Positions 26,196 to 64,000 of a DNA stretch of 64,000 nt are shown here, piece after piece. This DNA comes from Leptogorgia sarmentosa (Eukaryota). The DNA lies in NCBI GenBank assembly GCA_964658305.1, contig OZ210885.1:14508001-14572000 (forward strand), in the 5' to 3' direction. Made by a program: the position numbers and the translations under genes. The notes beneath the pieces are model-generated. The model made no database searches. It was not told where the DNA came from and saw nothing but the letters and a program-made list of their open reading frames with translations. Each line of letters starts with the position of its first letter. The stretch's first letter is position 1.

Positions 26196-26645
26196 TATTA
26201 CTTGACCATGATCACAAAAAGAGCTTAGAAATGTTGTCAAACATCTTTCAACATTACTCCTCTGTTCTGGATAGAGAAGAACAAAATGAGAGAATTTTAT
26301 GTCCAACGGTGGACAGAACTGGTGGACGAGGACGACCTAGGTAACTATCTATACCTTTATCACAAACATCCTGGCCACCAACCTTAAGGGCCAATTTATT
26401 ATCATAGTAATAAATTGGGATTAATAAGAAGCAAATTCTTTCACATACGTAAAGACATAAAGTATAGACAGCTTAAAAGAAATAAGTATCTTAGGAAGTT
26501 TTAATCTCTAAGCCTTCGTGGCAACTAATTTTGTCACTGATTGGGTTTCGGTTAAGCCGTCATTCCTGAGTTTGTTTAACGGATATAAATAGCTATCAAA
26601 GCCTCCGTAGTCCATACTGGTCTTAACTGCCATTCAGTAGACACA

Positions 26646-28880: not shown

Positions 28881-29104
28881 ACTTCACCAGGGGGAAGCCC
28901 GGCTTGGACATGAGATTCAACGTCCACAACGGTGAGGGCCCTTACCCTCACCCTGATGTTGTTTTCTCCAGCTTCTCCGGGGGCCCTTACTCCCAGAAAC
29001 CGCACTTTCCGTCACCCACAAATCGCCAAAAAACGAATTGCGTGTTTTATTAATTCTCTCTATATATGGGATTCCAGATGTTTTTGTACACTTTCCAACA
29101 TGTA

Positions 29105-33716: not shown

Positions 33717-36700
33717 CCATTACTGTGGAAGGTTTGCTATGAACCCAGAATATCTTTTCTTTGCACAGTTTGTTGTGGAACAAAAAAAAGTAATGGCATT
33801 AACATAGCATTGAGAAAGTACACAGGCAGTCTGTAACTGCATCACAAGTAAAATCAGACGTAAACCGACTAAAAGGTTTAATTTGTCAAGATCAGGCATA
33901 TTTGTTCTTGAGACAAATTCCAGGAACACCACCATACTGGCAAAAATTTATGTATGAAGTAGTAGCCATGGTAAAACAGCTTGGTATTCCAACATGGTTT
34001 ATGACATTATCATGTGCTGATCTTAGATGGCCTAAGTTGTTTCAGATTATTGCAAGGACACAGGGTAAAAATATGACTGACGAGGAAATTGAAGCTTTAT
34101 CTTACACTGAACGATGTTCATGTAACAACCTTAATCCTGTCATTGCTGCAAAACACTTTCAGCATAGAGTAAAAACCTTTTTCACTGAGGTTTTGCTCAG
34201 TCCTGTAAACCCAATTGGTAAAATAATATATTATGAGCTTCGCATTGAATTTCAGATGAGAGGTTCACCAAATTTACATGCATTAATATGGACATCTGAT
34301 TGTCCTAAACTTGATTCAGACAACAAAGAAGCATATATACAATTTATTGATAGCCATGTCCAAGCTGAGCTACCAGATCAAAAATCAAAACCACACTTAC
34401 ATGATTTAGTCAAAATGTACCAAAAGCATAGTCATTCTAAAACTTTCCGCAAATACAAAAATGTCAGTTGCAGATTTAATTTTGGCCAGTTTTTTACAAA
34501 CAGAACAATAGTAGCAGAACCTTTGAGTAGGGATTTAACTGAAGAGCTCAGGTGTAACATACTTGATCATAGAACAAAAATTTGATGAAGTATTAAATCC
34601 GCCAAACTCAGATTATAATGAGACATTCTGTGAAACAGATATCCTAAATATGGTCAATATTACTGAGGGTGGGGGTTGCTGGGCTCTTTCCATATCACCA
34701 GATTCATATTTTGACTTGCACCTTAAGAGGCCTATTGACAGCTGCTTTATTAACAACTATTTTGTTGCTGGTATTAAAGGTTTTGAAGCCAATGTTGACT
34801 TACAACCTGTATTCAATCATTACAAGTGCATAACATACGTCTGTTCATATTTTACTGAAGATGAAACCGAATGTTCTCAAGCTATTGTAAATGCAGCAAA
34901 AGAAGCCAAGGCTACAAACCTCAGTACTAGAGATGGTCTGAAAAAAATTGGTGCTGCTTTTCTCTCCACAAGAGAAGTGAGTTCTCAAGAATGTGTGTAT
35001 AGATCAATGCCAGAACTTTGGCTTTTCCTAAAACTGTTTACATTGCCACATATTTCCCAGAAAAAAGGTTGCATGTTACTAAAACCCAAGATGAACTTGA
35101 TGACAGTACTGACATTTTTAAGTCAAACATAGAACGTTACACTATCAGACCAGCAAATATACCTGTTGTCAATAAGTTATGCTTAGCTAAATTTGCTGCA
35201 TATTACTATAAAGACTATAAAACAGATTCTAATAATATGACTGACTCACAGCCAGAGGTCTTGACAGATGATTTAATTGAATCACAAGGTGTAGAGACTG
35301 GCATGTCTGAATGTCGTCCAAAAAAAATAAGGTTAAACAACACTAATGAACACATGAAATGTCGCAAAATTAAAGCTGTTGTAAGACACTATAGACCAAA
35401 TAAAATGAAAGAACCAGAAGCTTATTTTCACCATTTACTTATGCTGTACTACCCTTGGCGAAATGAAGGTAATTTAATGGCACACGACAAAACGTATAGA
35501 TTAAAATTCCACAAACCTGACATTCAGGCTATAGTTGCACACAACAGAGCAATATTTGAACCTGATACAGATGCCATTGATCATGCCTTTGAAACATTTA
35601 CATCTAACCCAGGTAATATGAATTCATATGACCCAATAAATGATCAAGAAAATGAAGAGTTGCAAAATGAAATGCAAGATGATACTTTTCCAAATGAAGT
35701 TTTTAATGAACAAGTGCCATCACATCTAGACCAAGTGCAAAATTCACATACTTCTTCTGGGGCAATTACTTCTTACAACCAACCAACAGAAATGTCTGAT
35801 GATACATTACATAAAAATATTAGGTCATTAAACACTGAACAACGTCATGCATATGATATATTTCTCACTTAGTGTCGCAGTAAAATGAAAAGTTTAAATA
35901 GCTTAAAACCTGTTGAAGTATTCGGGATTTCTTGGCCCCCCAAAAGAATAGTATCCCAAACAAATCACAATAGAATATCGTTTCTCTTTTATTCTCACAT
36001 GCTCGTTTACAACTACACAACAACAACAACCCTCGTGTCCTACGTCATTGTACGATGACGTATGCCCAAATGTACTTCCGGATTTCCATTTCCAGACAGA
36101 AGTAGACCCAATTTATCTATTTATTACTGGAGGTGGTGGTGCTGGGAAAAGCCACTTGATTAAAACTATATATAACACAGCTATTAAAACATTTAGACAT
36201 CCACCTAATAACCCAGAATTACCAACGGTCCTTCTAATTGCACCAACAGGTGTAGCTGCAATAAATATTGATGGCACAACAGTTAATACAGCTCTTGCAA
36301 TTCTTAAAGAAACTGGTGATAATTTGCCACCTATGTCAGACCAAAAGAAAACTCAGTTAAGATTAACACTGTGTGACTTAAAGCTAATCATAATAGATGA
36401 AATTTCTATGGTTGGCAATACAACATTCATGTAACCAACGACTGAAAGGGAATTTGGTGAAATTGCAGGAATTTCTATTATAGTTGTTGGTGATTTATGC
36501 CAACTTCCACCTATACGCAAAAGATTTGTATTTGATTCCTACAAAAATAACCTATTGAACCTTTGCCATCCTTGGAAAGTATTCAAAATGATAGAATTGA
36601 CCAAAAGCATGAGACAAATTTTGTTGACCTTCTTAATAGAGTTAGGATTGCCGCTCAAACAGATGATGATATTAGAATAATACAGTCAAGATCAATTCAC

Positions 36701-38347
36701 CCAGGTGATCCAAATTATCCCTCAGATGCACTTCATATCTGGGCAGAAAATAAACCTGTTGATGAATATAACAAAAAGAAACGTGAACAACTTTGTACAC
36801 CTTTATTTATTCTTAAAGCTAAAGATCAATATCCAACTAATGTGACAAAACAAGATATTGACAGAGTTTTAGCAAGAGGCAGGTCTGAAACTGCTGGGCT
36901 TGATTATGAAATTCATATAAAAGGTGCTAGAGTAACAAGGGTGAATTTCGTTCTCGACCAAGCAGCGCATTTGTTGACATTTTTGCGCTAAGCCAATCAG
37001 AACGCGTAAATCGCTATTTTGTAAACAAAGATGGGTACAGATATATACTTTACTCTTCGGCTTTGTTGCCATTGGAATCTTGATATTTTATTCTGAAATT
37101 AGAATATGTTGTTTAGGAAAGATTTTCCTACAATATTACCGTGGCAATTTGTAAATAATGGCGATTTTGGGGAGATATGCACGTCCAAACTTTGCCTTGC
37201 GCAAGCATAAATAATGCCCTTCAAATCCACCAATCTTTTGATATCTTAACTTATTAACTCGTTAATTTCCCGTGTCTAAACATGGATCTATTCACGATCA
37301 CAGTGTCATGAGTCATGATATGCACTACATGACTAACGGATGCTTTTGCGAACGTTTCAATCGCTTTTATTTTGTGATGGAAAGTGAACGATATTCTGAA
37401 ACTCACCGAACTTCAGGACATCGAATCTCAAAGTCTCAAACCTATGCCAAGTTTTCACCCACGATATCAAATTGAAGACATGAGGAATTCTTAGCAAATC
37501 ATGCACACGTTTATGCCTGGAAGGTTGCACTGGAGATGAAACGAATTCCCACAGCCAAGAAAGACGCGCCATAATGTGCTTGTGTGAGTGCAATGGACGG
37601 CATCACACACTCTGGTTTAAATCACAGAGTAAGAATAAGGTAAGAATTGATGTATATATTTTTATTGTACTATTTTAGAGACAAGGAAAGAACAGTGCAG
37701 TTGTCATTCAGTTATAGAAAGTATATATTAGTAAAATTTCAGTTTCAGTCATCATTTGTCCCACCCAGAATGGTGCATGTACTATTCACAAAGTTCAGGG
37801 CCTAACACTAGAAAGAGTAGTGATAACTTCAGAATTGATTAAACAGCGAGTTTTTAACTATGGCCAGATTTATGTTGCACTCAGTTGTGCAACATCTTTA
37901 CAAGGTCTCTACATACTGGGCAAAATTGAAAGTAAACATGTCAAAACTAACCCTAAGGTAATAGAAGAATATGAAAGACTACGAAATGAATGCATGGTCC
38001 CTCATTTAATGAGAGAATTGGCAGATGATGTCAATATTTTCACTTTTAAACATAAGATCACTCAAGAAGCATAGCATTGATCTCAAATTTGATTCAAGGC
38101 TTTCTAATAGTGACATCATCGCACTAACTGAAACCCAACTTCTCTCTCAGGATTGTGATACTGAAATAACTAATAATCTCTTTCCTTTCAAGCTCCAACG
38201 ACAAGATCATGATTTTCATAAATACTCTAGTATGGCACTTTGTTCAAAAAATGCAGTAGAAATTAGTGACTGTGTTTATTACCCTACAATCAATGGACAA
38301 AAATTTAACCTAAACAAATGTCAATCTGAAGAAAAAAAATCTTTCTA
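33717..38347 (+). mobile_element. Helentron (Helitron2-type) Rep-PIF1 helicase-endonuclease pseudogene, 5' part
   Basis: Rep motifs PTWFMTLSCAD, IEFQMRGSPNLHALIW, YVCSYFTE. PIF1 motifs TGGGGAGKS, APTGVAA, IIIDEISMV, GDLCQLPP, TIHKVQGLTL, YVALS. Endonuclease N terminus LLNIRSL...IALTETQL. Many lesions and an insertion at about 36935-37770. Confidence 0.9.
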
Positions 38348-38781
38348 CGGCGATTTCAGCGGCAAATGACAACGAATTAGTGTTTGTTTCACCTGTAGTT
38401 AATGACCAAAATCACTACTAAAATAGAATATTTGCTAGCGAATAGGAGTTTTATGCATTCCGGTCTTGTGTCTAATGGATAAAAATAGTGTTGGGCAAAG
38501 GCGTTAAGAAAGTGTTAAGAATTACGATAAGAGTATTAAATAGAGGTGTAAAGATGGAAAAGAATGGTGTTAGAATACTTAGATGTTCCGCAAAGCCGGA
38601 CAAAGAGGAGGAGCCTTGAGAATTGCACTGATATTATAAGGCAACGTGCTTGCCAAATGAAGACAGTCGCTGAAGTCGAACAACGAGGATCTTTGAAAGT
38701 CAATTTTTCGCAATTATTTTCGTAAGGTAGGATATTTTCTTTATTTCACTATTTTCCTCTTATTTCGCGTTGCTCCGATCA

Positions 38782-39387
38782 ATGGCTTTGGCAACCACCA
38801 CTACTGTGCCCAAAGTGTTAATTCTGGGCCATTCGTTTGTGCGCCGCCTCAAGAGCGACTTGCGCGCAGGTTTCGATGCGCGCGCTGCGTCGGATTTCGG
38901 CTTAGGCGGTACAATCGAACTACGCATGTATGGGGTTGGAGGGCGTACTGTCCAGAAAGTCACCGAGTTCGATCTACCCACGGTAACTGCATTCGCACCC
39001 GACGTCGTCCTGTTAGAATTAGGCACAAACGACTTGGCGAGTTTAGCCCCAGAAGTCGTAGGGTCCAATATAGACGATCTTGTGCAGCTTTTGCTCTCAA
39101 AGTACTCGGTGCGCCTGGTTATTTGGTGCCAAGTTACACCACGTGCGACAGTGAAACGCCACGCATACCATAGCGCAGATTTCAACAAGAATGCGGTGCT
39201 ACTTAACCAATATATGCGCGTAGTGCTGGAACCTTTGCCTCGCGCGATTTGTTGGAAGCACAAAGGTTTTTCTGTACCAGCTGTATCCCCCTTTCTCCCG
39301 GACGGGGTGCATTTCAATCGCCGGGGCCAATATAGTCTGTATCGCAGCTATCGAGGAGCTATATTGCACGCGCTACACATGCTATAA
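38782..39387 (+). CDS. SGNH/GDSL-family hydrolase carried by the Ngaro-type element
   Basis: Block I ILGHSFV, block II GVGG, block III ELGTND, block V DGVHF. Frame is open. Confidence 0.88.
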   Translation: MALATTTTVPKVLILGHSFVRRLKSDLRAGFDARAASDFGLGGTIELRMYGVGGRTVQKVTEFDLPTVTAFAPDVVLLELGTNDLASLAPEVVGSNIDDLVQLLLSKYSVRLVIWCQVTPRATVKRHAYHSADFNKNAVLLNQYMRVVLEPLPRAICWKHKGFSVPAVSPFLPDGVHFNRRGQYSLYRSYRGAILHALHML

Positions 39388-39802
39388 ATTCTCGATGTAA
39401 TATCGTTTTAGAACTCTACCTTACTGTTTATTGTATTGCTGTTGTCCCAGCATTATGCTGGGTTTCTATAGTCCTCGTTTGAGGTTTATCCCAATTGATG
39501 GGATTTTTGTTATCCTCTTCGGAGGTTTTTTATTTTGCTGTCCTCATGTGAGGCTGTTGTCCCAACCTTCGTTGGGTTGTAGTTTAGTCTGTTTGGCCAC
39601 TCAGGGCAGGATACGCGGCGACATCAACCTGTCTGCCATTGCCTGTCCCTGTGAAAAATTTAACTGTTAAATTTTAAGTAATATTATAACGACGATAACG
39701 CTATCTGGTTCGAAAATCCTTCGTATATACGAGGGAACTACGGTTCTCTCACATGTACAACTATCTTCTATCTGCCCCTCGCCTCAGTTTTTTCATTGTA
39801 GC

Positions 39803-40930
39803 ATGCCACCAAAAAGATCTTCGACGCGTAAGCGTGGGCGAGCCACTTCTTCAGGTCCATCTGTTACGGACGAAAGCCCATCTATCCGTCGCAGCCGACG
39901 TTCCTCCACGCGCAATGCAACCATAGCTTCCCAAGGGACTACGACCGCTCAGACACCACGTGCTGTCGACATACCAGTGGTTCCACAACAACAGCCCGCT
40001 GTAATTCTACCACCTGACTTGATGGAATCCATCGCTTCCACCGTTGCAGCTGAGGTTAACAAACAGCTGGCCGCCATACACCATCCAGAAGTTCCCCAGC
40101 GTTCTACATTGCTACCCGAAATCAGCACGACGCGAGTGGTAAACGATGCAATAAGTGAGGCTCATTCTCGTATTACAGGTGAACCCCATTTATTGCCTAC
40201 TTGTAACGTAACTCCGCCCGTCGTTCCCAACCAAGTTTTTCTTTCTTCCAATCTGCCGATTGATTCTCGCGTCTCGGCCAAAATCAAAGGAAAAATTTGG
40301 AACGAGGAGTATCTCGATTTCGGTGTTTTACTGAGCAATCCTCTTACTGACAAATATCAGCTTTCCTTCCAAAACACCGGCGCCGGGCTTCCGGCTTCCC
40401 TTTGTCTTGAGCCAGTTTCTAAGCCTAAAAGAATTCTCAACATCGAGACATGGCAACAGGCATTTTATATCTTTGTTGGAGTTTACACCCAAAAATACCC
40501 GCATGAGGCCCCCGCACTCATGAAATACGGGCAAACTATTCGTGATTTGGCTGCCCGCGGTCAGAATTGGATTTTCTATGACGAAAACTTCCGCTATTTG
40601 CGCCAAACTGAAACAAGTCGTTTGCCGTGGGGGGCAATTCACGGGGAATTGTGGCTTCGTGCCCAATCGGCCCCCAAGGCAGCGCCACCCAGTCCAAACC
40701 AGGGTAATTCAAGAACAGGGCTGCCTTCAATTCCCTCAGGCTTTTGTTTTAAATTCCATCGCGGACAGTTTTGCTCGGGTAATTGCGGTTTTCACCATAC
40801 TTGTTTCAAATGCAAGGGTGCTCACCGTCACACTCAGTGTAATTTTCGTCCCCCTACCCATAAAAATCTCAAGTCTGACCGCCCAGCCAAACCCACTGCC
40901 AACGCCAGTCAAACTCCCGCCTCTCGTTAA
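39803..40930 (+). CDS. Ngaro gag-like ORF with C-terminal Cys/His knuckles
   Basis: KIWNEEYLDF, W..AF.IF..VY, WIFYDENFR and CFKFHRGQFC..C.FHHTCFKC..AH...C. Confidence 0.85.
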   Translation: MPPKRSSTRKRGRATSSGPSVTDESPSIRRSRRSSTRNATIASQGTTTAQTPRAVDIPVVPQQQPAVILPPDLMESIASTVAAEVNKQLAAIHHPEVPQRSTLLPEISTTRVVNDAISEAHSRITGEPHLLPTCNVTPPVVPNQVFLSSNLPIDSRVSAKIKGKIWNEEYLDFGVLLSNPLTDKYQLSFQNTGAGLPASLCLEPVSKPKRILNIETWQQAFYIFVGVYTQKYPHEAPALMKYGQTIRDLAARGQNWIFYDENFRYLRQTETSRLPWGAIHGELWLRAQSAPKAAPPSPNQGNSRTGLPSIPSGFCFKFHRGQFCSGNCGFHHTCFKCKGAHRHTQCNFRPPTHKNLKSDRPAKPTANASQTPASR

Positions 40931-42460
40931 ATTTCTTTCGGGTTATGACCCCGATGCTGTTCGAATTTTAATTTCCGGATTTTCGCATGGTTTTCCTATT
41001 CATTTTGATAAAACTCGATCGTCTTTAACGGCGAATAATTTGCTTTCGGCGTTGCAAAACCCGCAAGCTGTCGACATGAAACTGGAACAGGAATTGGCTG
41101 CTAAACGTTTAGCGGGTCCTTTTAAGTCACCCCCGTTTCAAACCTTTTGCGTCTCGCCGCTTGGTCTGGTGCCCAAAAAGACACCAGGTGAGTTTCGGCT
41201 AATTCATCATCTATCGCATCCCCAAGGATTTTCGATAAATGATGGAATAGACGCGGCAAACACGCAAGTACACTATGCTACAGTCGCTGACGCCATCCGT
41301 CTCATTAAGCGCGCAGGACCGGGCTGTTTTTTAGCTAAAACCGACATTCAAAGTGCATTTCGCATCATCCCTATCCACCCCAATGACTACCCGCTTCTGG
41401 GTATGCATTGGCGTGGGGTTTATTATTACGACAAGTGTATGCCAATGGGCTGTTCCAGTTCATGCAAAACTTTCGAGCTTTTTAGTACATCAATTGAATG
41501 GATTGCTCGCCACAAGCTCGAAATCGAGGAGCTCCTCCATTTGTTGGACGATTTTCTTTTTGTATCTTCTACACATGATCAGTGTCAACGTAATTTAAAT
41601 CGATTTATTTCCTTGTGCAGCCAACTTGGCGTCCCCATAGCACCAAATAAAACATTCGGTCCATCTACCACTCTTACATTTGCCGGAATCGAGTTAGACT
41701 CGATTCGCTCTGAGGCGCGTCTACCTCGTGATAAAATCACCAAGTGTGTCGAGATTATAAACGGTTTTTTACCTCGCAAGAAGGTTCAACTTAAAGAACT
41801 TCAATCTTTAATTGGTCTTTTAAATTTTGCTACTACAGTCGTGACGCCAGGAATTGCTTTCCTGCGGCGCCTCTACGATCTTACGCAGGGCGTGAACCGG
41901 CCTTCTCATTTCATTAGATTGCGTTCCGAAGTGAAGGCCGATTTGCGTGTCTGGCTCAGTTTTTTGTCTTCTTTCAACGGCATTTCTTTCTTTCGTAATG
42001 AAGAGTGGTGTAATTCAACAAAGTTGAATTTATATACGGATGCGTCGGGCTCTATTGGCTTTGGCGCCGTTTTCGGGAATTCATGGTGTTATGGCCGCTG
42101 GCCGGCTAGTTGGCTGCATCGCAATTTTTTCCGATTGTACTTAGTTTATGTTTATGGGGTGATAAAATGCGCAATCATTCAATTTTGTTTTTTACTGACA
42201 ATGAGGCTCTCGTGCATGTCATCAATAAACAATCATGCCGCGATAAGACCTTAATGGTATTTGTTCGTAAGCTGGTCCTTGTGTGCCTTGACAATAATAT
42301 CCTTTTCAAAGCTAAGCACATTCCGGGTGTCAAGAACAAGTTAGCTGATTGTTTATCTCGCTTTCAGGTTCAAACTTTCAAGCAACTGGCACCAGCGAAC
42401 ACGAATCCTTTTCCTACGGACATCCCCCCGCATCTGCAGCCTCAAAGCTGGCCGATATAA
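40890..42460 (+). pseudogene. Ngaro RT-RNase H with one frameshift near 42122
   Basis: PLPTPV, FRLIHHLS, AKTDIQSAF, MPMGCSSSC, LLDDF, YTDASG, then FTDNEAL and NKLADCLSR in the next frame. Confidence 0.9.
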
Positions 42461-43368
42461 TTACACATCTCACAACATCCAGCTTACAACCATCCTCAAT
42501 TCCAACTTATACTCGGGCGTGGAAATTGTTTACGCAATTCCACAGTACATTGTTTCAGACAGCTCGTTTCAGCTTGCCAATCACGCCGGCTACATTGGCG
42601 CTTTTCATAGCCTATTTATTCGAACGCGGCTACGCTGCGTCTACGGTTAATACCTATACTTCCGCCTTAGGTTACTCTCACAAACTATCCGGTCTATCTG
42701 ACCCAACGTGAGTTTTCTATATTATTCAGATGCTCAAAGGCTACGGCAAAACTGGCACGCGCTTAGACAGTCGCCTGCCGATAACATTACCAATCCTCAG
42801 GAACTTAATCGAGGTAGCACCTCGCACTACCGGATCGCATTATCAGATCCACCAGTTCCAAGCCATGTGTGCATTGGCATTTTTTGCCTTTTTGAGGATT
42901 GGCGAAATTACAACCCATACGAGGGGTGGCTGTGAGCCGTTACAAATGCATCAACTCGCTTATATTCGTGACTCGAGTAACCAGGTGGATGGTATACAAT
43001 TAACCTTCACAAATTTTAAACATAGTTACAATGAACGACCTTTTATTTTGACGATAAAACGTCAGCCGTCGTGTTGTCCTATCGAGCTACTTCTCGATTA
43101 TCTTGCCCTCCGGGGTACTCGGCAAGGTGCGCTGTTTTTGACGCAACAAGGCACTGCCGTTTCACGAGAGGCGTTTGCTGGTCGGCTGTCTGAGGCAATT
43201 AACCTGTGCGGCCTTGATCCATCACGTTATAAAGGCCATAGTTTCCGTATCGGTGCCGCTTCGTATGCTGCAGTGCAAGGGATGTCCGACTCTCAAATTC
43301 GTATTCTTGGTCGTTGGAAATCGAATGCTTTCCATAAATATATTCGAGTTCCCTCCTTGTCAGCATGA
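42449..43368 (+). pseudogene. Ngaro tyrosine recombinase with one in-frame TGA at 42709-42711
   Basis: ORFs 42349-42711 and 42730-43368 share a frame. Motifs AFFAFLRIGE, FKHS, GHSFRIGAAS and LGRWKSNAFHKYIR. Confidence 0.92.
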
Positions 43369-44747: not shown

Positions 44748-46850
44748 TCATAACTCATAAGCATTATAAAAAATGTATATAAAAGGGTTAATGAAACTAA
44801 ACGTAAATTCCATTCTTCTTTCTTTCACACAAAACTTTTTTATAACATTGTCATAAAACTCTGGTTTCCCCTGCAAACAAGTCAAAAGTTCTTTCTCAAT
44901 AGTGATGGTAGCCAATGCTGACACAACCGATCTTGTCCTTGGGTGCTTCGAAGGTATGTCTTGATGCGCTTGAGCGCTGAAATTGGCATTGTTAGGATAA
45001 GTTGACATAAACGATAAACTTCCGGAAAGCAATTGTGTAGGTCAAGTTCGACAATTTTTTTAATCATGGCAAAAACAGGTTTCGATTTAAGTTCAGCAGA
45101 TGCATAAACAACGGTTAGTTCACCTTTTAAGGCAAGGATATTGAAAAATGAGCATTAGGTGGCTTCCAAGGAATTTAATTCTTCTTCTGGGAAATCTGTA
45201 CTATACAACTCGTGTTTTGAGTGGTCAAGCAAGGAAACAAATTTCATGCTGTTCAGACTTTCGAACCTGACATCAATCTGCATGACCGCGGTGTCAACGA
45301 CAGAGAAAAACATTCGACAGAATGACGCTTTACCTTGTTGTTCAGTTTGCCCTCGTCTCTTCGGTATATCCGCAACTTCTAAAGTAGAATTCCAATACGA
45401 TTCAAAATTGTCCTGTAATTCTTGAATTCTGCTTTTCGTTTCGATATCGTAGAGAATAGTTGTGAGTCCGAACAAAGGTGAAAATATGTTTAGGCAGAAC
45501 ACAAACTGGAAATCTGTGACAATATTGCGGTAGCCACAAGCTTCGTTTAGCACAGTACCTTCGAATTCATCGTCGTGCTCCAGGATGTATTCGAAAACTT
45601 CCACCAGCTTCTCCCGCGTCTCCAGTATTGCATGGATTAGTCTTGCGTGATAATGCCATCGGACAGCAGTACCAGTGGGAATTCGTCTACCAACAATCGT
45701 GTCTAACAAATGCGTTCTCTTGGATGAGATGTGGAAAAAGGATGAAAGGCCACTGACAGTCTTGAAAAATACTCTGCACTCTTTGGTTGACGACACTGCT
45801 TGGACCAACACTAAATTCAAGGCATGTCCACAACAGTGGATAAACAAGGCATGTGGATAGTCCTCTCTAACACGAGCTTGCAAACCGGTTAGTTGCCCCG
45901 ACATAACGCTCGCTCCATCATATGTTTGCGCAATCAATTTTCCACCACATCCGTACTCCTCCAAAGTACCGTCAACCTCTTGTTTCAATCTCGCTGCTGT
46001 TCTGTCCTCGCTTACGTCGGTGAATCCGAGAAAACGCTCCACAGGTTTGCCATCAGAGTTTACATAACGAATAATAGTGGTTAACTGAGACAAAGTTTTA
46101 ATGTCGGAGGTTTCAACCATGGAAATCGCGACGAATGGGCTGCTAAACACTTCGTCCATAATTGCTTTGGTTATGACATTTATAACAGAAATGATCAAAT
46201 CGTTCTGAATATGATTCGACATTCCAGAAAACACAGTAGCCGTCTGAAGATGTTGCTCCAGCGAGGAATCGTATATACTGACCAGCTTCACCATTGCCAC
46301 GGTTGGCTGATTCTTGGACCTCCACCCGTCCTCTAAAGGAAAGTTCCTGTTTGCCAAGGAAACAAACAACATTGATAAAACGGCGAAGTATCTCTCTATT
46401 CTTATGCACTGCCAGATTATGCGCTGATATATGCTGACATGTTTGCTCGTCTAGTTGCAAATCGATGCGGGCTCGACCAAAAGTAGCATTCATCAAACAA
46501 CTTGACAAATGACTTTTGGTTTTCTCGTGTCTACTGATAGCATTAGACAAATTCCCCAAATCGCTGTATCCTTTCTTATTCCATACAGGATTGTCTGTGG
46601 GATTGAACAAAAGGCATGGCCAGCAAAATAGTTCATTGAGTTTAGTAAAACCAGCAAGCCACTTGTACTTTTCATAATTTGATGTCTGAAAACTTCGAAC
46701 AAAAACTTTCCTGCCACGTTTTGATGTTGTGTGTAATTCTGGGATCTCGGGAGTAGGGCGTCCTCTTTCAACAATTTCTTTTTTCTCTGAGAATGGTCGG
46801 GATCCAAAAGGACGAGAAAGCAACGATTCCACGAGACAGGCGTTCATTTC
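44748..46850 (-). pseudogene. hAT transposase, frameshifted
   Basis: YKWL...LFCWPCLLF...RHEKTKSH, QELSFRG, AQTYDGASVMSG, FIHCCGHALNL, VRW, and ALKRIKTYLRSTQGQDRL. Confidence 0.88.
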
Positions 46851-46963
46851 ATATATTTTGGGTATACGACGGTAATCACACTTTGCACTACTAGTTTTTT
46901 TTACATGTGAAGAAGTGGAAATTTTGTCCGTTATATATCTTTGCCGCTCAGGAGTGGCTTGTA

Positions 46964-47549
46964 CAGTGTGTCTCAAAAAAAAGGTAATCCAACTTTGGCA
47001 TGCCATTGTGCGTTAATTACGGGGTGTACGAACGTGAGTTTTGCATGGTCATAAAGATCAAGGTCTTAGCAGTTGAATGACATATTTGTTGTACGATATG
47101 GAAGAAAATTAGGCAAATGCGAGCGTGTTGAAAAATCTCGGTGAAAAACGCATTCTTTCACCTCTGAGAATTGCAGCTAAACTTATTCAAAATTAACTCC
47201 CTCTGGGACTCGAAGATGACGACCTTCCCTTCAACAATCGACCTGATTATGCATAATTATTAATAATCCTGATAAAATCTTTGTTACCATGACACATTCG
47301 TGATGAATTGCATTTTTCTTTTGTTATGCACTGCTTTAATTAGGCACAGAGGTGAAAGAATGCGTTTTTCACCGAGATTTTTCAACACGCTCGCATTTGC
47401 CTGATTTTCTTCCATATGGTACAAGAAATATGTCATTCAACTGCTAAGACCTTGATCTTTATGACCATGCAAAAATCACGTTCGTACACCCAGTAATTAA
47501 CGCACAATGGCATGCCAAAGTTCGATTACCTTTTTTTTGAGACACCCTG
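46964..47549. mobile_element. Tc1/mariner-type foldback MITE with TA TSD
   Basis: TA|CAGTGTGTCTCAAAAAAAAGGTAATC...GATTACCTTTTTTTTGAGACACCCTG|TA with TIRs of about 200 bp. Confidence 0.9.
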
Positions 47550-56300: not shown

Positions 56301-57589
56301 GTAAACAACACATTTGATTATGAGATTCTATGTTCTGTGTATTACATGTAATGCTTGAAGAACAATAACTAAACCAAACTGATGGATAGGGCATTGCCGG
56401 AATTACAATCACAACGGCTTTGAAAGTTAAATTTCGATAAATTATAGATAAATTACAAAATATTGATCAATTGTATGTGCTTTTTATTTGCAATCTATTA
56501 CAACATTTTATGTTGAACTTTCACAAACTTTTTAATAGCTACCATGCATGCATGCATGCATGTCAATTTTTGATCTGTGTATTAATACTAAAAGAACAAT
56601 ATTTATTAAACCAAATTGAAGGATAGGGTCATTGCCCAAATTAGAATCATAAATTACTCTGAAACCTGCTAGACTTTGCGGTAATGCACTGTTGTTCACA
56701 CTATTCTGCATGCACTGGTTCACACATAATACAAAATATACATATTACCGACATATGAATAAAAGAAACTCTTTTGAAAATATTTTTCAACGCAAATACT
56801 GACCGACCTATGTACGTACATGCATACAAGGCATGTTTCACGGTATGACCACGAAACGAGGGGCTCGCCCCAATAATGGCATTTTTGCATGACGAGGCAA
56901 AGTGCGGCGGCATTTCAATACCTGGCAATGCAAACGTTCCAGGGCAAACAAACGAACATATGAACCATAATACACCGCGGCCGCTCTTCATGATAGTCCA
57001 CCATATTTTTGAGATCAGTGATGACCACCCATACACCATGACCCAAAATGGCTGCCAATTTGGTGAACTTCAGACTCCGCTTTGCTTTTCTTTACCCACA
57101 CGTAAATAGCCGAGCGAAATTACTACCCTCGCCTCTGGCGGTGCTTTGCGCCGTCCGCTTGGGGATCAATCATGAATTCAATGAAAAAATATAATAGCAA
57201 AATATAATCAAACCCCAAGTAGCCCGAGTGAACGCCTGATAGGCGTCTTGTTAACTGATAATTGCATGTTGCATTTATGACGAATGTAACTAATAAATTA
57301 TCCAGCTGTAAATCATTTAAAACTAAAATAAAATATTTGGAACAAATAGAGTTTTTATGATTTTTGTTTGTATTCTGACCCATAATTGTATATTAGTTAG
57401 TGCTCATTGAAAAATGTGAAAGGAAGGAGCGGGGGACTGGTGAGGAAACAGTCACAATGCTCGGGTTGAATACTTAACGAGGTGGCCCATGTGATACCGA
57501 ACTCATCTACTGCTCGTTGATGTTAGCTGATACAGCAACATAACAATTGTGATTCCACATTTACAATCCCTGTCAATCGTGTACGAAAC

Positions 57590-59807
57590 TAGGTAGGTAA
57601 GGTGTCGCTATTTATTATATTTATGTAATATTACAACTCTGCACGATTGTCTTCCTTGGTTAATTTTCGCCATTTTGTGTTTTATTAGGTTATATTTTGT
57701 AGTTTTAGTTGTGTCCCTGCGTCTTACGTCTTCAGATATAATATTATACTGTCTGCATTGGACATGTTTATCCATGTCAAGCATTGAAACTAAAGTTCTT
57801 ATTCTTGGTCACTCATTTGTGAGACGTTTTAAACATGATTTGAATTCATATTTCGATCCAAGGGCACGAAAAGACTTTAACCTGAGCAGCACAGCTTTGG
57901 TTTGCCTTCATGGTGTCGGGGGCAGAACTGTGGATAAGTTGTGGTGCTCTGGTTTGACTGCTGTCAAAGACACGTGCCCAGAGATACTTATTTTAGAAAT
58001 AGGAACTAACGATCTTTCGTATGGGAAGCCTGAAACTGTTGGATCCTCCTTTGACGATTTCGTTCTATTTATTTTGAACGAAATTGCAAGCTTCTGGGTA
58101 ATCGGCATTTGCCATGTGATTCCTCAAGGCATAAATTCGTTTCTTGATGCTAAGGAATGTGCGTGTTGTGTTGGCACAATATTCGAACGTTTTCTGCTGG
58201 GAACACAAACAGTTCAATAGTGTTTTTATTTATATTTATCGGATGGCGTCCATCTCAATAATTTGGGCCAATATTTTTTATACCAAAGCTATTGTGGTGC
58301 GATATTGAAAGGTTTAACCATGTTGTAGTTAAATGTCTTCAATATCTTCTTACTGGATTACCCCAGTTGTCCAAGGTGAACTATAGCCGTAGCGTCAACC
58401 TTGTGTTTGACAGGGCTAGTCCTTGAGACAAACTTGTGCAATATACCTTTAATATAATCATTGCTTACTCGTTAATTTACATTCAGTGTACCAGTGAGGT
58501 TTGTTACTTTACCTTTTGGCATTTGTTTGTTTGTATTTGTTTGCCAGTGTGGTTTGTAACCATTTGGCTTGTTTCATATTCGTTAGAAACAGTGCAACCA
58601 GTGAGGTTTATTGACCTTTTGGTCCAATTATATAAACATGTAATAATTTTATCTCAAAATAAACACCAGGGGAATTACATTCCCTTCTTCGCATATTCTT
58701 GTTTGCTGTGCCAGCAATGATCTGTCTAGTTTTGATTATCCCTAACAGTCACAATGCCCCCAAAGAAAAGTTTGCGGTCTAAAAGTAAGAATGATGGGGC
58801 CAACTGCCCAGCCAAACGACCACGGCAAGCCTTTACAGTTTCAAAACGGAAGCCACAGGCAGCTCCCTGCTATTCCGCAGCGCAGTCTGAAAGTGCCCCA
58901 TGTTCTGCAGCTCTATCAGAACCACCAGTGGGTCCAGCAGCGGAACTGCGAACATTCCCACTGGACTTCCTTGACCAACTAGTAACCCGAGTAGCAGACA
59001 AGGTCACACAACGTATTACCAGTGCAAATGAGGAAGCTACTGGCCCCACTTTATCCACCTCCACTTCCTCCGAGGGCGCGAGCCGACAATGGTATGGATG
59101 CAGTCGGCCAACATTCCATCAAGTCCACCAATGCCGTTGGTTCTCTGGTCGAAGAAGCAGTGGTATCTTCCCAACTGTCAATTGCAGGTATACCTTACAC
59201 TGATACGCTTGCCTTCCCTGGCCATCAATTGCAGTCCACCAGTATGGATATCGATGCTCATGTGCCTGATAAACTGAAGGCAAAAATTTGGAAGAATGAG
59301 TTTGTAGATTTTAGTTCGCTTTTGTCCAATCAAGTTTCAATTAGCAGTTAGTAATTTAGATGGGAGCAACTATTTGCCTGGAGCCAATTAGCCGCAACCA
59401 AAAGATTGTCCATATCGTGGAAGTTTACACTCGCCGATTCCCTGCAGAGGCCCCCAATTTAATGAAATATGGCGAAATTGTTCAAGATTTAGCATCCAGG
59501 GGTTTTCACTGGCAACTCTCTGATGAAAATTTGCAGTTCCTCCGGCAGAGCTCGGCCTCAACTTTGCCTTAGGGGAAGTATGCACTGGGAGCTATGGTTA
59601 CGTGCTCAGCCATCATCTTCTGCATTTAATAGGCGTTTTCAGGCCGTTGCTAATCTAAATCCATTGGGATTTGGCATGTGTTGGTTGTGCCTTTAAACAT
59701 ACTTGTTTTCAGTGTCAACACCAGCATCGCGTAAGCCAGTGTACTTTTCGTCCCCAATTTCAAATTTCAAAGCAGCTCGCTATTCTTTTTAGTATCCATT
59801 GTCAAAC
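57590..59807 (+). mobile_element. Decayed relative of the SGNH-carrying Ngaro element (SGNH and gag, cut at the start of RT)
   Basis: KVLILGHSFVRRFK, GVGGRTV, LEIGTNDL and DGVHL, then MPPKK..., KAKIWKNEFVDF, EAPNLMKYGEIVQDLASRG and C.FKHTCFQC. Collinear with 38782-40930. Confidence 0.88.
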
Positions 59808-59816
59808 GTATTTACT

Positions 59817-61226
59817 ATGGAAAATAACGACTTCGAAATCGATTTTGATCGGGAGCTCAATGTAAGGCAAACTCGCCGTGTATATCTCATCACTTATTCC
59901 CAAGCAGATCTTGGTAAAATACCAAATTGCCAGGCGTTTGTTGATTGTATACTTGAGGCATTTTCACAAAGAAACGAGAACCAGGCGAGTCATCCAGAAC
60001 ACTGGTCGTGCTGCATGGAGGATCATCGAGATGGGGGTAAGCATTATCACTTGGCTATCAAACTGAGTGGACCAAAGCGGTGGAATGCGGCGAAGAACTA
60101 TGTAAGACAAAAACACGGAATTACCCTGCATTTCTCCGACCAATCCTATGGGTACCATGTTGCCTACAAGTATGTTTGCAAGAGCAAGCCACTCACCGAC
60201 GTTCTCCACAGTCCTGCTCACCCCAATTTACAGGATATTGGCTCTCCAAAAACCAAACATGCCTTTACACAATTTTCCAATAACGCGAAGAAAAGGAAAA
60301 TCGCATCATCAACAACCAATGCGGAAGTAAATGAAAACGTTGCAGAGAGTTCTTCGAAAGCCAGCAAGAAGTTATCGAACATGGACGTTTCAGAATTTAT
60401 CGTTGCGAATGGTATTAGAAGCGATAATGAGTTAATGGCCGTCGCAAAAAGTCGACATTGTGAAGGTGAAAAGGATTTGTACAAATTCATCATAAACAAG
60501 TCTTCAAAATCGCTGTCAGAACTCATTGACATGACATGGAAAATGAATGACGCCTCAAAGAATGTTCAAAGGACAAGGGCGTCAAGAATGTCAATCCTCA
60601 GAGCCCATCTCGAAAAACAATGTTCACCTGCTTGCGAGGGACAGTGGTTGATGTGTGCAAAGCAAGTACTCCAGCAAAATGGAATTAATTTGTATTGTTT
60701 TGCTTCAGCCCTGCGCCAGCTTCTCGAGAAGGGGAGACAGAAGCGATTGAATGTCCTGCTCGTTGGCCCGACAAATTGCGGAAAATCATTTCTTCTCAAT
60801 CCACTGGAGTTAATATACAAAACGTTCATTAATCCGGCTACCGGAAAGTATGCTTGGGTCGGCTTAGATGAATGTGAAGTAGCATACTTGAATGATTTTC
60901 GATGGTCACCAGAATTAATCAGATGGAGTGACTTTCTGTTGCTCTTGGAAGGGCAGACAGTCCATCTTCCAAGGCCAAAGAATATGTTTGCCACCGATTT
61001 GTGTATTCCACGAGAAAACACCATCCCAATTTTCGCAACCAGTAAGGGTCCGATTGAGTTTTTCGGGAAATACAACAGCCGTGACGAGCGTGAGAATGAT
61101 ATGATGTCATCCAGATGGAATATATTCACATTCTGCGTCCAGATTCCGCCAAATGATTGCAAGGATATGAATCCATGTGCTCGTTGCTTCAGTAGTCTAG
61201 TCATGTCTGGAAGTGATGTTGAGTGA
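59817..61226 (+). CDS. Rolling-circle Rep: HUH endonuclease fused to a superfamily 3 helicase (CRESS/parvovirus NS1-like)
   Basis: Uninterrupted frame of about 470 aa. RCR motif I YLITYS, motif II KHYHLAI, motif III YKYVCK. Walker A GPTNCGKS, Walker B-like AYLNDF, motif C-like IFATS, Arg-finger-like SRW. Confidence 0.9.
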   Translation: MENNDFEIDFDRELNVRQTRRVYLITYSQADLGKIPNCQAFVDCILEAFSQRNENQASHPEHWSCCMEDHRDGGKHYHLAIKLSGPKRWNAAKNYVRQKHGITLHFSDQSYGYHVAYKYVCKSKPLTDVLHSPAHPNLQDIGSPKTKHAFTQFSNNAKKRKIASSTTNAEVNENVAESSSKASKKLSNMDVSEFIVANGIRSDNELMAVAKSRHCEGEKDLYKFIINKSSKSLSELIDMTWKMNDASKNVQRTRASRMSILRAHLEKQCSPACEGQWLMCAKQVLQQNGINLYCFASALRQLLEKGRQKRLNVLLVGPTNCGKSFLLNPLELIYKTFINPATGKYAWVGLDECEVAYLNDFRWSPELIRWSDFLLLLEGQTVHLPRPKNMFATDLCIPRENTIPIFATSKGPIEFFGKYNSRDERENDMMSSRWNIFTFCVQIPPNDCKDMNPCARCFSSLVMSGSDVE

Positions 61227-61288
61227 AAGTGTGCACGTGAAACGTTTTGAATTTTTTTAAACATTTAAAGCCAGGCAATACTATTTTA

Positions 61289-61513
61289 TGACACGTTACC
61301 ACACACGTTACCATTAAAATACTATACTAATTTAAAGGATACAACACGTTACCACACGTTACCATCATTTTTTAAAGAAGTATTATACTTCTTTTTAAAT
61401 AATTGTGGTAACGTGTGGTAACGTGTCACAAAAGATTAATTTTATGCTCTTACCTAAAGATAGCGTTTGGTAACGTGTTGGTAACATGTTGGTAACGTGG
61501 TGGTAACGTGTCA
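61289..61513. repeat. Palindromic iteron-like array with central hairpin (candidate replication origin)
   Basis: CACGTTACCA at 61292, 61304, 61345 and 61355. Inverted copies at 61406, 61416, 61468, 61479 (one mismatch), 61490 and 61501. Hairpin AAAGAAG-TATTATA-CTTCTTT at 61374-61394. Confidence 0.9.
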
Positions 61514-61610
61514 ACTTAGACTGTACATAGTTGAGTTTTGAGTAATATTTATTTACTTTGAGACTACAACATGCATTTGAGGTATATCTAGGTACAATAC
61601 GTTAAGTAAT

Positions 61611-62330
61611 TTAATACTTTGTTCTGTTACCATTTCCTGCAACAATAAGCTGCATTCGTTTGTTCATTGAAAGAATTGTTTTATTAATTGTTTCGACTGG
61701 AACGTTCTTCATGGTGTATTTTATCCGCTCTGAAAATGCAGCGAAAGACTCTTTCGTGATTTTGTTTCTTAAAGCGTCGTCTTGAAGCTGTTTGCGCACA
61801 AGATGAAATATATTTTCAATCGGATTGATATCTGGAGACCGTGGAGGAATGGCGAACATTCTACACCCTAAATTTTCCATTGCTTTACGAGCAACTCTGG
61901 AACACTGTCGTGGATCTCCGTCCTGAAGAAACAGTTTTCCACGAGGATTAGCACTGTTATCAAAGACTGAACTGAAATGCTCTGCAACGAATTCGGCGAA
62001 CATTTTTCCGGTAAGTTTGGAATGATATTGTTCGCAACTTATTACACCCTTGCCGAAAGCAATTGCTACAAAAAAGTTTGCTGTTTTCCCACCGCTCCCC
62101 TCTTTTTTCCCTTTAGACGTATACACTAAACCCTCTCCAGCCTTTCGCCAATTTCGTGCTCCACTTGATCTGGCTTCATTGTGGGGATTCGTTTTGTGTA
62201 CAAATCCAACACCGTCAAAGTAAAAGCTAATCCCTTCCGTCCAGAATTCCTCTTTAAGCTGTTTCAAAACTTTCTTTGCAAAATTTGCTCGTTTGTTTTT
62301 ATCGGCTTCGGTAAGAAGACCCTTCTTTAT
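61611..62330 (-). CDS. Tc1-family DD34E transposase catalytic domain, 5' truncated
   Basis: SFYFDGVGF, FLQDGDP, then 34 residues to the E of SPDINPIE; C terminus GNRTKY*. The N-terminal HTH domain is missing. Confidence 0.9.
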   Translation of the reverse strand: MKKGLLTEADKNKRANFAKKVLKQLKEEFWTEGISFYFDGVGFVHKTNPHNEARSSGARNWRKAGEGLVYTSKGKKEGSGGKTANFFVAIAFGKGVISCEQYHSKLTGKMFAEFVAEHFSSVFDNSANPRGKLFLQDGDPRQCSRVARKAMENLGCRMFAIPPRSPDINPIENIFHLVRKQLQDDALRNKITKESFAAFSERIKYTMKNVPVETINKTILSMNKRMQLIVAGNGNRTKY

Positions 62331-63470
62331 AACGTACATACTGATTTCAAGTTAAACCATTAACTTTACAACTGTTATGGACTTGGCTTGTTTCCTATCC
62401 GATTATTTTAGTTATCCATGTGGAAATTTCCGGGGAAAATCTGACTGTGCACTCTGCTTAGACTAAGTATAACTGGCGGCGTATATGAACTCTCCCTTAC
62501 TTCGTTCAATGTAGTTTGTATTTTCTTTAAATTTATAAGAATATGATTCGATTATGAGTTAGTGTCCTTATATATACAAATATTAAGAATATAATTTTCT
62601 ATTCACATTAATTATTATATAACTACAATAAAATCAAAGTCAAAGACACTCGCGCAAACATTTGAGGCTAAACCATTTTGAAGCCATCCATCAGAAAACT
62701 CGGTCAAAGCATCAGGATGCCCCGCTACCCACCTCCCTCCCCCCCCCCCAACTGCCAATGTCGATCAGTTCGAGATGTCTCCGATTGTTGTGGTTGCTTG
62801 TTTTTATCTATTTCAAAAGATTGCTACGAAAAGAAAATAGCCACAGCACACTTGATACCTTAGGGGAAAACCCGCCTTTCTATCGACTGTAAATTCATTG
62901 TTTCTTTGCTAATTGACAATAGTTGAATGTTATTTTATGTTCACAAGAGTGACTGCTTATGCTAAATAAACTACAACAATAAATATATTTGATAAAGTTT
63001 GATGAATATATCGAAAATATGTAGAATGATTTTCGTGATTGCAATTATACCATGATCGGGGACGCTGGTTTTATCTATTTCAAAAGACTGCTTGGAAAGG
63101 AAAAGAGCTGCATGCATGAAATATTGTTGTTTTTCTTTGCAAATACCAAATAGACATGATAAAATGTTTTAAACATATGATTTAAGTTGTTTGTTCAATG
63201 TCATAGTGAGACGATAGTTTCTAAGTACTAATTAATGTCGCGTCAAATTTGCAAATATTTCATTGAAATTTAGAGCGCATTGGATTGTGTCCCCAAAAAA
63301 AAAATTTTTCATTTGTTATATATTAGTTTCGAATGACCGAGATGCAGTATCGAGTTACATGTGTTCGTGAAACACGAGGCCAGTGTGAAGAACACATAGA
63401 ATTGTGTTCACATCATTCACAGTGAACAGATGTGTGCTTTTCCGCTCTGACAGAATTAAAGAGCATTTAC

Positions 63471-64000
63471 AATGGAGAATAAAGAGAAGACTGCGGGAAT
63501 TAGCCTGCTACATGGTCTAGGTATTAGTCATAAAGGAAAGATTGTATGGACTTCGTCATTCGAAGCGTTACAGAGTTTGTTCAGGGAAGCTTTAAATTTG
63601 TAAAACAGAGATTGGTCGGCGGGAGGGCAGGCGAGTTTTTATGAAAACAACGATGTAGCTCTTAGGTGGTACACAGATACTAAGTCAATCACACTTGGTG
63701 GCAAACTCGCGAAAGAATTGGAGAAGAAGCTCGATGGCTTCTATATCACAGAACTTAGTAAATGAAGGCATGCCTAATTCTGTCAACGAAGCTGCCAAAG
63801 GTATTCAAATTGCATCAAGCAAGTCTAAGGATCAAAATCTGCATACGGAAGACAATAATGCATTGTTTGAAAACGTAATTAACTCGAAAGCCACTCAATG
63901 CTCTCAAGAAGACAATGCCATCTCCAACTCTGATGATTTCAAACTTACCATAATGACCTGTGTCGAAAATATGAACAGTAAAATGGATTTTCTTATCAAC
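63471..64000 (+). pseudogene. Possible decayed ORF1 of a CR1/L2-type LINE (runs off the window)
   Basis: Fragments KIVWTSSFEALQ, VALRWYTDTKSITLGG and ELEKKL resemble invertebrate LINE ORF1 N termini as I recall them. Stops are present and no RT is in the window. Confidence 0.35.

Follow-up and report, generated by a model that had tools for sequence, protein, structure and literature searches.

The window, a 64,000-nt stretch of the Leptogorgia sarmentosa genome (contig OZ210885.1, positions 14,508,001 to 14,572,000), contains a gene for a Rep protein with HUH endonuclease and SF3 helicase domains, lying tail-to-tail with a Tc1-type transposase gene across a structured spacer (Table 1). This arrangement raises the question of whether the three parts form one mobile element and how such an element would propagate. 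A first-pass annotation had proposed a single unit that could integrate through its DDE enzyme. We find that the locus belongs to a family of two-gene DNA transposons and is a damaged copy; the relatives that carry a name are in cnidarians, a host range drawn from few names.

Table 1. Features of the Rep-transposase locus and its flanks (window coordinates; Rep motifs by residue)
Feature	Position	Strand	Details
Decayed retroelement, presumably Ngaro/DIRS-like, left flank, outside element	57753..59754	+	GDSL-like ORF, gag remnant
Rep 5′ leader remnant	59762..59816	+	left terminal module absent
Rep ORF	59817..61226	+	ATG 59817 to stop 61226, 469 aa, unbroken
Rep HUH endonuclease domain			motif I residues 23-28, H76-x-H78, Y113, Y119-x-x-K122
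Rep linker			helical, conserved CxxxC
Rep SF3 helicase			Walker A 317-324, Walker B N359-D360, Arg finger R433
Rep C-terminal end			CxxC
Spacer	61227-61610		384 bp, inverted short repeats
Spacer array, candidate Rep-bound origin	61279..61513	.	inverted CGTTAC repeats, AT-rich palindrome
CGTTAC repeats, four	61294, 61306, 61347, 61357	forward	
CGTTAC repeats, five	61408, 61418, 61470, 61492, 61503	reverse	
AT-rich palindrome in spacer	arms 61344-61376 / 61394-61426		between opposed CGTTAC sets
Tc1-type DD34E transposase, catalytic part	61611..62327	-	residues 125-362 of nearest full-length relative, 91% identical
High-depth repeat(s) interrupting transposase gene, outside element	62328..63400	.	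depth, joint at 62328

The Rep frame is as uninterrupted as the first-pass annotation had reported, and 200 shuffles of positions 57001-64000 yielded no ORF of at least 238 codons. Its Pfam match is to PPV_E1_C (E 2e-6), with weak matches to Rep-catalytic families. Alignment with relatives shows the catalytic residues conserved in 115-119 of 115-120 sequences, and the dN/dS between the window copy and locus L002 is 0.13. A structure model resembles AAV Rep68, parvoviral NS1 and papillomavirus E1, at 10-18% identity to all of them. The predicted fold is intermediate between parvoviral NS1 and papillomavirus E1, with the nicking residues kept; these and not CRESS Reps are the best fold matches, and the Rep is not CRESS-typical. 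SF3 helicases usually carry DD or DE at Walker B and TSN at motif C; this one has ND and TSK, which counts against the mechanism favored below. Among proteins of 883-2520 aa we saw neither a longer Rep nor a fused one (weak evidence).

The open frame on the opposite strand spans 61611-62351, of which only 61611-62327 is transposase. It matches DDE_3 (E 2e-9) and has the triad D38, D136 and E171 with a spacing of 34, the three residues being conserved, respectively, in 119, 120 and 119 of the 120 relatives; the best match of the family profile among solved structures is SB100X (E 2e-17). The catalytic domain is thus uninterrupted, as claimed, within a 5′-truncated gene. Because the match starts only from residue 125 of the nearest relative, which is 362 aa long, the window transposase lacks the DNA-binding N-terminus, and an N-terminal HTH (PF01498, Tc3-type) is present in relatives P0306 and L019.

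Both ends of the window copy are broken, in agreement with the earlier note. We place the left break at approximately 59755-59762, as contigs branch at 59762-59791 and the gag remnant of the flanking retroelement stops at 59754. This retroelement, whose Ngaro/DIRS-like label we assume from its motifs, was matched by tblastn with an intact sister at 38731-40930; its GDSL Pfam match is weak. On the right, the sequence that interrupts the transposase gene has a read depth mostly 20- to more than 100-fold over the flank and shows no match to the element loci. No match to a terminal module was found near the element, and 62640-62900 was rejected as a right module (E 0.5 only). Read depth, which was approximately twice that of the flank in two runs from the same sample, was also rejected as a measure of copy number. 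With both modules and the N-terminal part of its transposase gone, the window copy is unable to move itself.

To establish linkage, we counted as informative the loci with at least 900 bp downstream of Rep. Rep and transposase lie tail-to-tail in 26 of these 27 loci; across all 79 Rep loci a transposase match is present in 35, on the strand opposite Rep in every case. Over 23 families, with identities of 23-70% for Rep and 32-67% for transposase, the distances of the two proteins correlate (Mantel r 0.52, p 1e-4). Recurrence and co-divergence, the checks suggested at the outset, both speak against a chance pairing. Several small clades are common to the Rep tree and a quick version of the transposase tree, and the deep branches of both are poorly supported. 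Contig-size matching stands in for a linkage test that starts from the transposase: the Rep and transposase clusters nearest to the window copy have 8 contig sizes in common (11 and 12 distinct sizes), and the best-120 lists for each protein share 11 contig sizes versus 1.8 in a jitter control. Looking for Rep from the transposase side yielded only L081 and L082, both of which end too soon after the gene. One locus, L078, has Rep and a module without a transposase, which we count against the best explanation.

The dN/dS values are 0.11-0.34 in 8 of 9 measurable pairs, which shows, as far as substitution patterns tell, purifying selection on both genes; the remaining pair (0.84, a segment from a broken copy) weighs against the best explanation. 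In line with the absence of a capsid ORF noted for the window copy, no third gene or capsid recurs among the 143 other ORFs from the loci, and the unit measures 3.6-4.5 kb.

The relatives' ends consist of a 150-306-bp module that is present as a direct repeat at both termini and has its own inverted ends. At the sequence level, the loci show a unit laid out as module-Rep-spacer-transposase-module. In L019, for example, the module at 1034-1296 recurs at 4733-4995, and direct terminal repeats are also found in L051, L058, L045 and L047. Left and right modules within one copy agree at 263/263, 149/150, 58/59, 172/180 and 154/166 positions, versus 180/218 between sister families. The module contains a near-invariant CAATGTTG motif, and its inner motif pair is present in 26/26 families examined. 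An inverted repeat in L034 (228-476 / 4576-4789) was rejected as element ends, as it is without the module motifs.

The flanks distinguish outer from inner module ends. TA precedes 15/24 outer-or-unknown ends versus 5/50 inner ends, and C precedes the TA in 12 of the 15 (mostly CTAG, outside). GA is found at 40/50 inner ends, mostly as CAGA; the five inner ends that carry TA count against the best explanation. In the two whole copies, L019 and L051, each outer end is flanked by TA, which supports the proposed integration through the DDE enzyme, and L018 and L019 are 99.9% alike with different right flanks. Of the expected TIRs and TA duplications, the TA flanks are thus found in relatives; simple TIRs are not, the ends being direct modules with inverted ends of their own. 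Linkage, co-divergence, shared modules and TA flanks together strongly support Rep, spacer and transposase as one mobile unit.

The spacer is 1 bp shorter than the 385 bp first given, and its structured array is borne out by a folding z of -8.1, with equally good folds in 0/100 shuffles. Comparable inverted arrays are found in 16/22 family spacers, with family-specific repeats and, in most, an AT-rich centre. Judged by eye with respect to the CRESS-type nonanucleotide stem-loop, these AT-rich centres differ between families. The spacer looks origin-like across families, as had been suggested for the window palindrome. A significant inverted array is absent from 6/22 spacers, and folding is no better than z -4 in 9/24; we count both against the best explanation. 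We rejected the palindrome as an independent MITE, since its repeat unit varies with the Rep clade and it always occupies the same position. The palindrome has a higher read depth than Rep does, and there may accordingly be related palindromes at other sites.

Evidence on propagation comes from a possible multimer. On a 21,975-bp Paramuricea clavata contig, which bears CAB4013260-267, Rep accessions (…260, 262, 264, 266) alternate with transposase accessions (…263, 265, 267), and the copies are 93-99.5% alike. An integrated multimer is suggested by the order of the accession numbers and not by the DNA itself, a limit that we count against the best explanation. Cyclic and permuted contigs were also found (L004, L012, L015, L026, L040, L061). 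We rejected these as proof of circles, since an assembler yields the same from direct terminal repeats, and we observed neither circular nor single-stranded forms, which counts against the best explanation.

We hypothesize that circles with one module are amplified by Rep to give multimers, and that the transposase excises module-to-module units from these for insertion at TA (probability roughly 0.55). Amplification would be by rolling circle or rolling hairpin. A one-module circle would first arise by recombination between modules or by Rep-driven release. Rep would then bind the inverted spacer repeats, melt the AT-rich centre and nick via its intact HUH site, either in the spacer or at the module's CAATGTTG motif, after which a host polymerase would make multimers. 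The transposase would require two modules, which would restrict the lifting of a full unit to multimers and integrated copies. Insertion would duplicate TA, and both modules would be renewed from one template. Further points count against this model: identical left and right modules could also result from assembly collapse, and in a multimer the transposase would have to cut at GA-flanked ends, whereas Tc1 donors are normally TA-flanked. Unequal crossover, as proposed for KolobokP, can be an alternative source of multimers.

The multimer model has to be weighed against copying within the chromosome, in which Rep would re-replicate or nick an integrated copy, unequal crossover between modules would create multimers, and ordinary cut-and-paste would proceed from the TA-flanked outer ends. 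This process needs TA-flanked ends only, accounts for the Paramuricea array and fits the contrast between GA inside and TA outside, where the inner GA would keep a module from leaving by itself; KolobokP, in the available part of its description (PMC9587614), has the same layout and model. However, any non-TA flank would block excision, yet GA (mostly CAGA) specifically is conserved inside. Retention of a full SF3 helicase and the match of modules within a copy as opposed to their difference between families are also less well explained, and we consider in-chromosome copying possible but rather unlikely.

It is improbable that the element is a virus segment or satellite with its capsid encoded elsewhere and a transposase that provides a provirus stage. 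Its Rep fold resembles those of parvoviral NS1/Rep and papillomavirus E1, the unit is virus-like in size, and many relatives are on 4-5 kb contigs; however, no third ORF recurs, and members, often fragments, lie within contigs of hundreds of kb. Scans of IMG/VR found no close relative of Rep and none of the transposase; the one distant match, to the HUH domain only (L001, 26%), was left out of all counts. Still less credible is a Rep that the transposase merely carries along as passive cargo, enclosed by two MITE-like modules and dispensable for propagation. A single module does resemble a small TIR element, and in L054 the module has TA at either end, a hint of a solo module. Against this reading, purifying selection acts on Rep, whose catalytic residues are all conserved; 23 deep families have retained it, and family-specific inverted repeats lie beside it. 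A chance pairing of an endogenous virus Rep with an unrelated Tc1 element, which the window copy alone, without ends, would permit, is refuted by the linkage, fixed orientation, co-divergence and shared ends.

In the openly accessible literature, we found no description of an element combining Tc1 and HUH-SF3 genes. The closest layout is that of KolobokP, which, in the available part of its description, has direct terminal repeats with short inverted ends, a DDD/E transposase with a second nuclease, and multimers (Kojima and Bao 2022, PMC9587614). The present element shares repeats of this kind and the pairing of a transposase with a second nuclease. It differs in its enzymes (Tc1 DD34E and HUH-SF3 Rep versus Kolobok transposase and His-Me nuclease), in its shorter repeats (450 or 660 bp in KolobokP) and in its TA target, convergent genes and iteron-like spacer. 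For Teratorn, a review proposes that a unit is excised from a concatemer made by rolling circle and then integrates (PMC10175614). Both systems join a viral replication module to a DDE transposon, and the concatemer-plus-DDE logic proposed there is that of our model, but Teratorn is a 180-kb herpesvirus-piggyBac fusion in fish, whereas our element has two genes and no virion genes. The geminivirus-like transposon of Tuber melanosporum combines a Rep-like ORF with transposase ORFs within a single repeated unit, as described by Liu et al. 2011 (PMC3198968); as far as that account extends, it is one fungal family whose ORFs are interrupted, with 37-bp TIRs, a geminivirus-type Rep and no obvious TSD, and direct terminal modules are not mentioned. 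The same source describes Hydra DENSOV_HM (Repbase) as an integrated virus and mentions no transposase in the part available; compared by description only, it may be a member of the present family.

Helitrons and Replitrons are also eukaryotic transposons with an HUH Rep, joined to an SF1B helicase in the former and without a helicase in the latter (Craig 2023, PMC10288648, in part). They insert through the HUH enzyme, whereas the present element encodes a DDE enzyme apart from its Rep and has TA flanks, and its Rep carries an SF3 helicase instead of an SF1B/PIF1 one or none. With Tc1/mariner DD34E elements it shares the triad, the Tc3-type HTH of full-length relatives, TA flanks and inverted outer ends, but it has a second conserved gene and direct modules instead of simple TIRs. 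Like CRESS DNA viruses it encodes an HUH-SF3 Rep, but it has no recurrent capsid gene; it differs from Parvoviridae in this respect too, and in having TA-flanked modules instead of terminal hairpins.

At a little short of an even chance, these elements represent an old, undescribed class of animal replicative DNA transposon: a rolling-circle replicon that has no capsid but encodes a DDE integrase of its own, and that renews its direct terminal repeats each cycle like LTR retrotransposons, via a DNA multimer and not RNA. If true, eukaryotes would have, besides Helitrons/Replitrons and Polintons, a third copy-and-paste route of DNA transposition, with an SF3 Rep replicating and a Tc1 enzyme integrating. 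The element provides a small two-gene system for testing the concatemer-integration model proposed for Teratorn, and one that bears on the open question of how KolobokP maintains its direct repeats. Some "endogenous ssDNA virus" Rep matches in invertebrate genomes are transposon genes, and short cyclic Rep contigs in marine metagenomes are not necessarily viruses. A Rep fold intermediate between NS1 and E1 that retains nicking residues bears on the origin of parvoviral and papillomavirus initiators.

The window contains an unbroken Rep ORF and, on the opposite strand, a transposase open frame (see the table below). Shuffling the region around the gene pair 200 times never produced a frame of at least 238 codons. 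In Pfam, the Rep ORF matched PPV_E1_C (E 2e-6), with weak matches to two Rep catalytic families, and the transposase frame matched DDE_3 (E 2e-9). The intervening spacer folds with a z-score of -8.1, equaled by none of 100 shuffles, and contains an AT-rich palindrome flanked by CGTTAC repeats, four in forward and five in reverse orientation. On this evidence, the gene pair and structured spacer reported in the first-pass annotation stand.

The same annotation considered the copy truncated at both ends, and indeed no terminal module was found near it and foreign sequence abuts it left and right. The left side has the remains of a Ngaro/DIRS-like gag, which stop at 59754, and contigs that branch at 59762-59791; the right side meets a high-depth repeat that begins at ~62328. 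Compared with its nearest full-length relative, the window transposase is 91% identical over that protein's residues 125-362 and lacks the N-terminus. High-depth repeats occupy 62328-63400, and three runs show an opposite-strand joint linking 62328 to 62852. Because copies in other runs bear frame-breaking indels (window 60646, 61805 and 62070), the family is judged to be decaying in this host. The window copy is a dead fragment of a family that is low-copy here.

Features of the window copy and other mobile DNA in the window
Feature	Position	Strand	Description
Rep ORF	59817-61226	+	469 codons, unbroken
Transposase open frame	61611-62351	-	384 bp from Rep ORF
DIRS/Ngaro-like retroelements	38731-43368, 7839-11817, 26909-29053		gag, RT-RNase H, tyrosine recombinase (by eye from motifs); one of the three with a GDSL-like ORF (by eye)
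Fragments like Helitron Rep and PIF1 helicase	33803-36991		by eye
hAT-like transposase ORFs and BEL/Pao-like remnant	13224-15119, 45155-47012, 18451-22822		by eye
Lone module-end-like stretch	26508-26543		matrix score 19.3, profile E 0.09; neither module nor TA nearby

One metagenome scan returned 137 Rep-coding stretches, the best 80 of which gave 79 loci. A transposase relative was present in 35 of these, every time on the strand opposite Rep, and was tail-to-tail with it in 26 of the 27 loci with at least 900 bp beyond Rep (31/39 at a 500-bp threshold), across gaps of 330-904 bp. The exception, locus L078, has a distant Rep (962-2611, 550 aa) and a module at 3934-4184 with GA outside both ends, without a transposase; it may represent a form with Rep alone or one that has suffered a deletion. 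When loci were collapsed at 80% Rep identity, 23 families were left, in which Rep and transposase identities were correlated (Mantel r 0.52, p 1e-4). Small clades common to both trees include loci L018+L023, L041+L057, L029/L038/L051 and L060+L062, in trees with unresolved deep branches, a quick version for the transposase and two Rep rows less than half filled. The clusters nearest the window's Rep and transposase share 8 source-contig sizes (of 11 and 12 distinct), and the two top-120 lists share 11, versus an average of 1.8 (at most 7) in the control.

Among the best 120 of 397 Rep relatives, H76, H78, Y113, Y119, K122, the Walker A K323, D360, R433 and four cysteines are nearly invariant. 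The cysteines (269-273 and 454-457) may form a zinc site; Walker B (359-360) reads ND and motif C (408-410) TSK across the 120. For an AlphaFold2 model (pLDDT 87.5, pTM 0.58), the best PDB match was AAV2 Rep68, and BFVD gave papillomavirus E1 and parvoviral NS1; identities were 10-18%. Given the conserved residues and these distant fold matches, Rep is an HUH-SF3 initiator that keeps its nicking residues and lacks a close viral family. A search with the transposase profile, whose best match is SB100X, found 599 relatives, and D-D-34-E is retained in 119-120 of the best 120. Two relatives on bacterial MAG contigs, probably carried-over host DNA, have a module with outer TA (L082) and CGTTAC-type repeats in the spacer (L081). 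Named hosts among the relatives listed are few: Paramuricea clavata (Rep and transposase) and Sanderia malayensis (Rep). Together with the transposon content of the window, these names suggest a cnidarian origin for it.

In 16/22 families, a short, family-specific word was enriched in both orientations over shuffles (p 0.02 or less); its copies usually stand forward on one side of an AT-rich center of ~50-70 bp and reversed on the other. Folds of z -4 or better occurred in 15/24 spacers versus 1/24 coding controls, a contrast that favors spacers, as the best spacer window was chosen. Initiator-bound origins with this anatomy are known from polyoma-, papilloma- and parvoviruses, making the first-pass guess of an origin a reasonable one for this candidate.

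In relatives, a 150-306-bp module upstream of Rep is repeated in direct orientation past the transposase 5′ end. Its ends are inverted CAAT-xxxx-GACAAAA-type sequences, and its interior reads C-tract-CAATGTTG, 23-73 variable bases, then CAACATTG-G-tract; this motif pair was present in 26/26 families examined at up to 2 mismatches (43/52 motifs exact). TA lies outside 15/24 outer-or-unknown ends versus 5/50 inner ends (Fisher p 5e-6, overstated because some loci are kin), and GA outside 40/50 inner ends. The nine non-TA outer calls comprise three on cyclic contigs (really inner), two in L078, three undetermined and one miscall. C precedes TA at 12 of the 15 outer ends, giving C-TA-G (loci L018, L019, L023, L025, L028, L029, L035, L047, L051, L054 and L064); IS630 prefers CTAG. 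At two loci, L019 and L051, the whole element is integrated and abuts TA on either side. The flanks of L019 contain an F-box ORF and remnants of DDE_Tnp_4 transposase, and its right flank differs from that of L018, of the same family; L051 sits inside a tandem-repeat array (3960-3995, 8270-8310). At L054, the module upstream of Rep (805-1059) has TA at both ends; it may be a solo insertion, or else inner flanks in this family may be TA, as they are in L039/L060. Module identity is 93-100% within a copy, the top values possibly inflated by assembly collapse, versus 83% between sister families. The single mobile unit first proposed is thus borne out by linkage, tail-to-tail order, correlated identities and TA-flanked ends: the element is one unit, inserted DDE-fashion at TA, with both genes under selection.

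We propose, with a probability of roughly 0.55, that a one-module circle would be amplified by Rep into multimers, from which the transposase, able to mobilize a complete unit only where two modules are present, would excise and insert one unit. This model would account for Rep retention, the within-copy module match, the conserved inner flank and what looks like an array: on a 21,975-bp contig of Paramuricea, the two genes alternate, judging from accession order alone. No circles of the element were observed, and cyclic contigs do not prove them, because direct repeats alone yield such contigs. Tc1 enzymes normally cut TA-flanked ends, which counts against the circle-multimer model; a less likely alternative is that re-replication or unequal crossover takes place within the chromosome and the transposase performs ordinary cut-and-paste. 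That the element is a virus segment is improbable: the 3.6-4.5-kb units of relatives contain no capsid, matching the absence first noted, and among 143 other ORFs no third gene recurs across families, bar module-overlapping frames. Rep as passive cargo is more improbable still; dN/dS, another comparison first suggested alongside phylogenies, was 0.11-0.34 in 8/9 measurable pairs (the ninth, one segment of a broken copy, gave 0.84; five more were saturated). With linkage this regular, chance neighbors can be dismissed.

In the available portions of the source papers, KolobokP (PMC9587614) is alike in repeat layout and multimers but differs in its enzymes; Teratorn (PMC10175614) shares the concatemer-plus-DDE logic but is 180 kb; and Helitrons and Replitrons (PMC10288648) differ in helicase status and insertion route. 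The accessible part of Liu et al. 2011 (PMC3198968) describes, from a truffle, an element whose TIRs enclose ORFs for Rep and transposase and, from Hydra, DENSOV_HM, which has an E1-like protein; compared by description alone, the latter may belong to this family under a virus label. We found no description of the Rep-transposase element in the open-access literature. It is more structured than the first-pass annotation could see, and belongs to an already known kind, virus-replicon and DDE fusions; that it constitutes a new class of replicative transposon is a tentative proposal, slightly short of even odds. The element acts like Tc1 at insertion and resembles KolobokP at its ends, and its replication is probably like that of a small DNA virus; it belongs to none of these groups.
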